A DNA stretch of 64,000 bases from Escherichia coli (GTDB lineage: Bacteria > Pseudomonadota > Gammaproteobacteria > Enterobacterales > Enterobacteriaceae): assembly GCF_003334255.1 (NCBI RefSeq), contig NZ_QOWU01000012.1; one strand, written 5' to 3'. Every line of letters begins with the position of its first letter. The stretch's first letter is position 1. Of this stretch, positions 50,294 through 50,418 are shown piece by piece. Under the pieces are notes generated by a model. The model was given only the letters and a program-made list of their open reading frames with translations, had not been told where the DNA came from and did no database searches. The position numbers and the translations under genes were made by a program.

Positions 50294-50380
50294 GGAGTTG
50301 TTGGTTCGTTTTAACGGTTGGTGATATCACTATAGATATTGATCATTAAGTTGATTAGACCCAAAATCATGATTAGACCT

Positions 50381-50394
50381 ATCATTTAAATGAT
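50381..50394. promoter_or_regulatory. Perfect palindrome ATCATTTAAATGAT (T-N11-A type) in the ycjY/pgrR divergent promoter region
   Basis: Self-complementary 14-mer 25 bp upstream of the pgrR ATG, with additional ATCAT/ATGAT and GATTAGACC direct repeats at 50341-50380. Confidence 0.45.
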
Positions 50395-50418
50395 TAATAG
50401 ATTGTATGGAGATACTGA

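Follow-up and report, generated by a model that had tools for sequence, protein, structure and literature searches.

The 55-bp cluster of repeats at positions 50341-50395 (GATCATTAAGTTGATTAGACCCAAAATCATGATTAGACCTATCATTTAAATGATT), in the spacer between the divergent genes ycjY and pgrR, is very likely an operator of the LysR-type regulator PgrR, interleaved with two divergent promoters that are both under PgrR control. Since PgrR binding in this spacer and PgrR autoregulation have already been published, the finding is largely known. The additions made here are a base-level map of the sites, a consistent T-N10-A dyad, and the conservation of the gene cassette and its operator across Proteobacteria. 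For a regulator so far known at the resolution of the spacer, this gives a testable map with a primary dyad, two secondary sites and two overlapping promoters, in which we infer the bases touched by PgrR and both transcription starts.

The ycjY-pgrR spacer and its dyads

The window, the whole 64-kb stretch of DNA analysed, is Escherichia coli sequence, with 100% identity to strain ATCC 8739. The ycjY-pgrR locus was found in 5243 of 5426 complete genomes. The gene identities and the divergent orientation given in the earlier note agree with the RefSeq annotation. On the minus strand, ycjY (49361-50281) encodes a DLH-type alpha/beta hydrolase and heads the series ycjY-ymjD-ymjC-mpaA; its initiation codon is the ATG at 50281, with the Shine-Dalgarno sequence GAGGAA ahead of it. 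[quoted passage not shown] The two genes are separated by 137 bp (50282-50418), with a G + C content of 33%. Compared with the window, the K-12 spacer has SNPs at 50302 and 50405 only, both outside the feature. The conserved regulatory core described below (50329-50398, corresponding to 1,391,901-1,391,970 in NC_000913.3, whose coordinates equal window positions + 1,341,572) is identical in K-12, so that the K-12 literature applies directly to the window.

All PgrR homologues had the Pfam domains HTH_1 (PF00126) and LysR_substrate (PF03466). PgrR itself had the LTTR arrangement, with an N-terminal HTH_1, a LysR substrate-binding domain and a gene divergent from its target. Its top PDB matches were all LTTRs (3mz1, AphB and CrgA), and by sequence it is nearer to these than to BenM.

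By reading the sequence and with a repeat finder, we recovered all the repeats, half-sites and the palindrome of the earlier note in their places. The half-sites are ATCAT at 50342, 50366 and 50381, and ATGAT at 50369 and 50390. The self-complementary element is a perfect 14-bp palindrome, ATCATTTAAATGAT, at 50381-50394 (Box A, centre 50387.5), with the family consensus TATCA-N6-TGATA, and we propose it as the primary high-affinity PgrR site. The palindrome thus stands as described, but its label, T-N11-A, was rejected. The element reads ATC-N8-GAT, that is, T-N10-A; being even-length, it cannot hold a symmetric T-N11-A, and the surrounding odd-length pseudo-dyads do not fit.

An imperfect second copy of the dyad, which the earlier note did not mention, was located by the repeat finder 39 bp upstream of Box A. 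This Box B (ATCATTAAGTTGAT, 50342-50355, centre 50348.5) shares 13 of 16 bases with Box A (50342-50357 against 50381-50396) and is a candidate secondary, promoter-proximal PgrR site. Like Box A, it is ATC-N8-GAT, and neither of the two has a T-N11-A form such as ATC-N9-GAT or ATAC-N7-GTAT. A Dam site (GATC, 50341-50344) overlaps the left arm of Box B; some orthologues have it (TTGATCATT) and others do not (TTGATTATT). A third element, half-dyad C (CCCAAAATCATGAT, 50360-50373, centre 50366.5), lies 21 bp from Box A. Only its right arm is conserved (GAT, 50371-50373), and inside it there is a conserved A-tract (50363-50366). Judged by its sequence, half-dyad C is a putative PgrR binding site, possibly an alternative secondary one.

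The direct repeat GATTAGACC reported at 50353-50361 and 50371-50379 is present. The true repeat is longer, with 10 nt (TGATTAGACC, plus strand, 50352-50361 and 50370-50379, copies 18 bp apart), and the 9/9 perfection of the shorter version is confined to Escherichia. Copy 1 takes in the right arm of Box B along with the -35 predicted for pgrR, and on the minus strand it spans the -35 region predicted for ycjY. Copy 2 falls within the spacer of the predicted pgrR promoter. Rather than a separate element, the GATTAGACC repeat would be the right arm of the sites (TGAT) together with the pgrR -35-like TAGACC. As a functional unit of its own it was downgraded, copy 2 being unconserved outside Escherichia.

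Taken together, the clustered features exceed chance. Five ATCAT/ATGAT sites per 55 bp are the maximum of the 64-kb window, reached here only (mean 0.15). Among 5000 dinucleotide-preserving shuffles of the 137-bp spacer, 0.06% reached five half-sites, 1.4% a 14-bp palindrome and 1.1% a 10-bp direct repeat, and the half-sites and the palindrome occurred together in none of the 5000. A perfect 14-bp palindrome alone is unremarkable across the window (4 observed vs ~3.9 expected).

Elsewhere in the window, the osmB-yciT gap carries three TTATATC-containing repeats 25 bp apart (1965-2040), with a perfect TATCACGCAGGTGATA dyad (1971-1986) among them. These repeats precede yciT, a gene for a DeoR-type regulator, and resemble an operator array. 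The match of this dyad to the PgrR-family consensus may be coincidental.

Conservation, predicted promoters and geometry of the proposed operator

We aligned the E. coli spacer with those of ten orthologous loci (11 spacers, PgrR protein identity 83-99%), labelled Escherichia, Citrobacter, Kluyvera, Pseudocitrobacter, Shimwellia, “Serratia” and one metagenome-assembled genome. The alignment had a 70-bp phylogenetic footprint, the conserved regulatory core (50329-50398). In the orthologues, the core was 81-93% identical to E. coli, whereas the third-codon positions of pgrR were 42-53% identical, a contrast read where synonymous sites are near saturation. The flanks were 49-69% identical on the left and 6-35% on the right (17 bp). 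Invariant blocks were ACTATAG (50329-50335), ATTAA (50345-50349), TGATTAG (50352-50358), GAT (50371-50373) and TATCATT.AAATGATTAAT (50380-50398). Box A was unchanged in 10 of the 11 spacers, the sole change being a T>G in locus L009. Both arms of Box B were perfect in several orthologues (ATCATTAAGATGAT), and in half-dyad C the GAT was invariant and the ATG nearly so. The alignment shows the repeats and the palindrome to be the part of the spacer that is under selective constraint. Because the promoter hexamers overlap the operator arms, conservation cannot separate the two constraints.

The second copy of the direct repeat varied among the orthologues. For the 10-nt repeat TGATTAGACC, it was mostly TGATTGGACT in the other Enterobacterales, with other variants in L008 and L013; for the 9-nt version, it was mostly GATTGGACT outside Escherichia, with GATTGGAC or another variant in the other orthologues. 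With the second copy altered in most orthologues from outside Escherichia, the perfect repeat is lineage-specific. This could mean that the perfect GATTAGACC repeat is a recent, functionless 18-bp tandem duplication in Escherichia and that Box A alone matters, an explanation favoured by the 10/10 identity found in Escherichia only, by the prevalence of the altered second copy elsewhere, and by the distant relatives, which read CATGA(G/A)CC at the second-copy position. Yet almost no base from Box B to Box A varies within Enterobacterales, so this whole interval is constrained, and both copies overlap predicted functional elements. We consider such a duplication unlikely as the full explanation, and it is partly compatible with a PgrR operator.

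The predicted -10 of ycjY is TATAGT on the minus strand (50329-50334, ACTATA on the plus strand), with a predicted start at ~50322, and the ACTATAG containing it is invariant in the enterobacterial alignment. For pgrR, a consensus scan predicted on the plus strand a -35 (TAGACC, 50356-50361) and a -10 (TATCAT, 50380-50385), with a predicted start at ~50392. This -10 is invariant in the orthologues and overlaps the left arm of Box A. The same pgrR promoter, TAGACC-18-TATCAT (50356-50385), was predicted by Shimada 2014 (PMC3946193), where the RpoD holoenzyme bound the spacer in SELEX. In Shimada 2017 (PMC5493296), holoenzyme SELEX gave a very strong RpoE peak (17.2) and an RpoH peak of 4.4 in the spacer (50282-50418). 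Despite the RpoE peak, a lenient scan of 50240-50450 for a sigmaE promoter (GGAACTT-N15-17-TCAAA) was empty. No structured RNA was recognized by Rfam matching to E=1 over 50150-50550.

The transcription start site (TSS) table of Kim 2012 has no TSS inside the ycjY-pgrR spacer. It lists an mpaA TSS at U00096.2 1388705, 23 nt ahead of the start codon that the table gives for this gene, so that mpaA may not rely on the ycjY promoter alone. It also has an antisense TSS within pgrR (U00096.2 1390556), assigned to ycjY with a 667-nt leader.

An ATG within Box A opens a 10-codon upstream ORF (MINRLYGDTE, 50390-50422), whose TGA overlaps the pgrR ATG. The ORF has no Shine-Dalgarno sequence ahead of it, and its ATG is upstream of the predicted pgrR start. 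In an enterobacterial orthologue of ~88% identity (L002), the Box A ATG is in frame with pgrR, which is probably why many homologues are annotated with 309 aa and not 299 aa.

In E. coli, the centre of Box A lies 58.5 bp from the last base of TATAGT, at ~-65.5 to the predicted ycjY start. Each of the 14 hydrolase-linked loci had one TAnnnT hexamer on the hydrolase strand at 57.5-58.5 bp from the centre of dyad A, L009 having an additional, weaker one at 60.5 bp. This fixed distance between -10 and dyad places the dyad near -65 of the hydrolase gene. In LTTR operators, the site of high affinity lies near -65, and weaker ones follow in the direction of -35/-10 (PMC4730206). Relative to the predicted ycjY start, the primary dyad has this position, and weaker secondary sites, both conserved in Enterobacterales, lie over the -35 to -10 of the target, with half-dyad C at ~-44.5 and Box B at ~-26.5. 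On the other side, Box A extends from about -12 to +3 relative to the predicted pgrR start.

The arrangement resembles a canonical LTTR divergent operator in several respects (PMC4730206; PMC10505187). The LTTR gene is divergent from its target, a perfect dyad is found ~65 bp above the predicted target start, weaker degenerate sites are found over the target -35, the primary site overlaps the promoter of the regulator, and autoregulation is negative. It differs in the dyad itself, which is an even-length ATC-N8-GAT and not ATC-N9-GAT or T-N11-A; the canonical LysR motif is one base longer than the dyad here (PMC6628147). With its consistent N8 spacing, the T-N10-A dyad departs slightly but clearly from the T-N11-A rule by which LysR sites are predicted. 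PgrR is also unlike canonical LTTRs in being described as a repressor only.

In the mechanism that we propose, Box A would be the primary high-affinity site and would anchor a PgrR tetramer ~65 bp upstream of the predicted ycjY start. On Box A, a PgrR dimer would sit over -12 to +3 of the promoter predicted for pgrR and so keep RNA polymerase out, which would account for the negative autoregulation. The tetramer would place its other DNA-binding dimer on one of the two weaker sites. Binding to Box B (~-26), which overlaps the -35/spacer region of ycjY, would lead to repression, and half-dyad C (~-44) would be the alternative contact.

A similar layout is found with BenM/CatM at benA/catB of Acinetobacter baylyi, where there are also three sites, one consensus dyad and two imperfect ones. 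Without effector, the BenM tetramer bridges site 1 and the promoter-proximal site 3 and represses; in response to effectors it moves to sites 1 and 2 (PMC6628147). The centre-to-centre spacings for PgrR, 21 bp from A to C and 39 bp from A to B, give a layout resembling BenM sites 1, 2 and 3. The BenM half-site, ATAC-N7-GTAT, differs from that of PgrR, the PgrR site C is a half-dyad, and a switch would be carried over purely from the BenM case. On this analogy, an effector-driven switch between B and C, together with the exact PgrR contacts, is plausible, and we put it forward tentatively, with somewhat less than even confidence.

Published PgrR data and competing explanations

The PgrR (YcjZ) regulon description of Shimada, Yamazaki and Ishihama 2013 (Genes Cells 18:123), as cited in PMC4797297, PMC5934670 and PMC10505187, deals with the same protein and the same spacer as the feature in the window. 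By gSELEX, ycjY/ycjZ is among the PgrR targets (PMC5934670), and the curated regulon includes ycjY-ymjDC-mpaA, ycjG and ycjXF-tyrR (PMC5934670, PMC4797297). RegulonDB and EcoCyc have on record both the gSELEX binding at ycjY/ycjZ and the repression of ycjY-ymjD-ymjC-mpaA. By DAP-seq, PgrR reached a fold enrichment of 5632 at the pgrR promoter, compared with 4413 for LacI at lac in the same table (PMC10505187 suppl. 6); the other listed PgrR target, sfmCD, had 16 (PMC10505187). The main text of PMC9189660 does not mention PgrR, and the “PGRR” of PMC12710356 is the name of an unrelated database.

A CRISPRi knock-down of pgrR raised the pgrR promoter by log2 0.97, and in a strain with tunable PgrR the promoter activity was higher at lower PgrR levels, confirming negative autoregulation (PMC10505187). 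The spacer had been named in the earlier note as the expected site of PgrR autoregulation, and this is supported, with gSELEX and DAP-seq putting PgrR in the spacer and with knock-down and titration showing the negative autoregulation. The note had also expected control of the ycjY-ymjD-ymjC-mpaA transcript. Here the repression is on record, but the rise of the ycjY promoter on pgrR knock-down, log2 0.28-0.60, was non-significant (PMC10505187). In the same knock-down, ycjG, listed as PgrR-repressed, was up by log2 ~1.0 in LB (PMC10505187). Upstream of ycjG, a Box-A-like ATC-N8-GAT dyad was absent from the tpx-ycjG spacer (47239-47356). Regulation of ycjG by PgrR may be indirect or via a different site.

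Another protein, such as Fur, H-NS or IHF, could be the main ligand of the cluster in place of PgrR. For Fur, the best spacer match to the 19-bp consensus GATAATGATAATCATTATC is borderline (13/19), with just 13 such sites in the window on both strands; we found no report of Fur binding to the ycjY-pgrR spacer, and the persistence of ATC-N8-GAT in alphaproteobacterial loci favours the linked LTTR over Fur. For IHF, the spacer contains ATCATTAAGTTG, one mismatch off the IHF core consensus WATCAANNNNTTR, but the TTG of this IHF-like site is unconserved and orthologues carry ATG. A knock-down of hns raised the ycjY promoter significantly, by log2 0.88 (PMC10505187), an effect that is compatible with PgrR as the specific regulator. 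The conserved unit is the ATC-N8-GAT dyad, which tracks the PgrR-like gene into the alphaproteobacteria, and we regard a site mainly for another protein as very unlikely.

Least probable of all, to the point of being hardly tenable, is that the repeats are mere AT-rich core-promoter elements (-10, -35, UP-like) of back-to-back promoters and that the PgrR enrichment is a general AT preference: the hexamers TAGACC, TATCAT, TCTAAT and TATAGT do all lie within the repeats, RNA polymerase holoenzymes alone bind the spacer in SELEX (PMC3946193, PMC5493296), and several other PgrR gSELEX targets (leuO, rfaL/S, yjgL) are AT-rich (PMC5934670), but with 5632 the DAP-seq fold at pgrR is comparable to that of LacI at lac and exceeds that of sfmCD (16) by a factor in the hundreds, the conservation extends over 70 contiguous bp and includes dyad arms outside any hexamer, the alphaproteobacterial dyads keep their symmetry though they lie over a Shine-Dalgarno sequence and no -10, and the promoter responds to PgrR dosage (PMC10505187).

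The hydrolase-regulator pair beyond Enterobacterales

Proteins with 58-73% identity to PgrR were followed back to the contigs that encode them, from gammaproteobacterial metagenome-assembled genomes, Agrobacterium, Bradyrhizobium, Sphingopyxis, Hyphomonas and others. All ten of the distant PgrR-like genes were divergent from a DLH-type YcjY-like hydrolase gene, at a distance of 111-168 bp, and the recognition helix QSALSQIVR was mostly kept in their proteins. Anchored on the dyad, the distant spacers aligned gap-free and were collinear with E. coli. In an offset control, the E. coli core was 48% identical to the distant spacers at register 0 and 18-35% at all other offsets.

The collinear ATC-N8-GAT dyad was perfect in six of the ten distant hydrolase-linked loci and degenerate in four. 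In the distant relatives, it overlaps the Shine-Dalgarno sequence and the start codon of the regulator gene. GATTAGA was kept at the register of direct repeat copy 1 even in alphaproteobacterial loci (L018, L019, L021 and L025). Among the distant relatives, AAAA was kept at the register of the A-tract of half-dyad C. One locus (L016) had two perfect ATC-N8-GAT dyads 39 bp apart, the spacing of Box B and Box A in E. coli. The geometry of the second site varied among the distant relatives, from these 39 bp to 31.5 bp in L017 and to the half-site GATTAGA alone in others, which restricts support for the three-site model to Enterobacterales.

Homologues of ~54% identity, on Zymomonas and Tistrella plasmids, were set aside as paralogues; they had other neighbours and no dyad A. 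A Novosphingobium locus (L026, 55.6%) was excluded as well, being unannotated and without dyad and -10 hexamer.

The conservation of the hydrolase-regulator pair and its operator far beyond E. coli makes the murein-peptide genes a less likely pointer to a PgrR effector than YcjY, the uncharacterised DLH-type hydrolase, to whose substrate or product the effector would more probably be related. A wider reading goes further, and we hold it with still less confidence than the BenM-like switch alone, as a possibility. The ycjY-pgrR pair and its operator would form an old, probably mobile two-gene cassette of alpha- and gammaproteobacteria, and its regulators would be a subfamily with an atypical even-length T-N10-A dyad (TATCA-N6-TGATA), held at position -65 relative to the hydrolase gene. 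PgrR would be a classical LysR regulator responding to an effector, with YcjY as its primary conserved target and a three-site switch like that of BenM, and its role as repressor of peptidoglycan recycling (mpaA, ycjG) would have been added in E. coli only, or would be indirect.

In the Sphingopyxis pair (L019), the hydrolase (142-1089) was 76% identical to E. coli YcjY and the regulator 61% to PgrR, YcjY being the better conserved of the two. The plasmid copies of the pair and this higher identity of YcjY than of PgrR suggest that the cassette spread horizontally. Such copies were found on Klebsiella and Agrobacterium plasmids, and a few E. coli plasmid records matched too.
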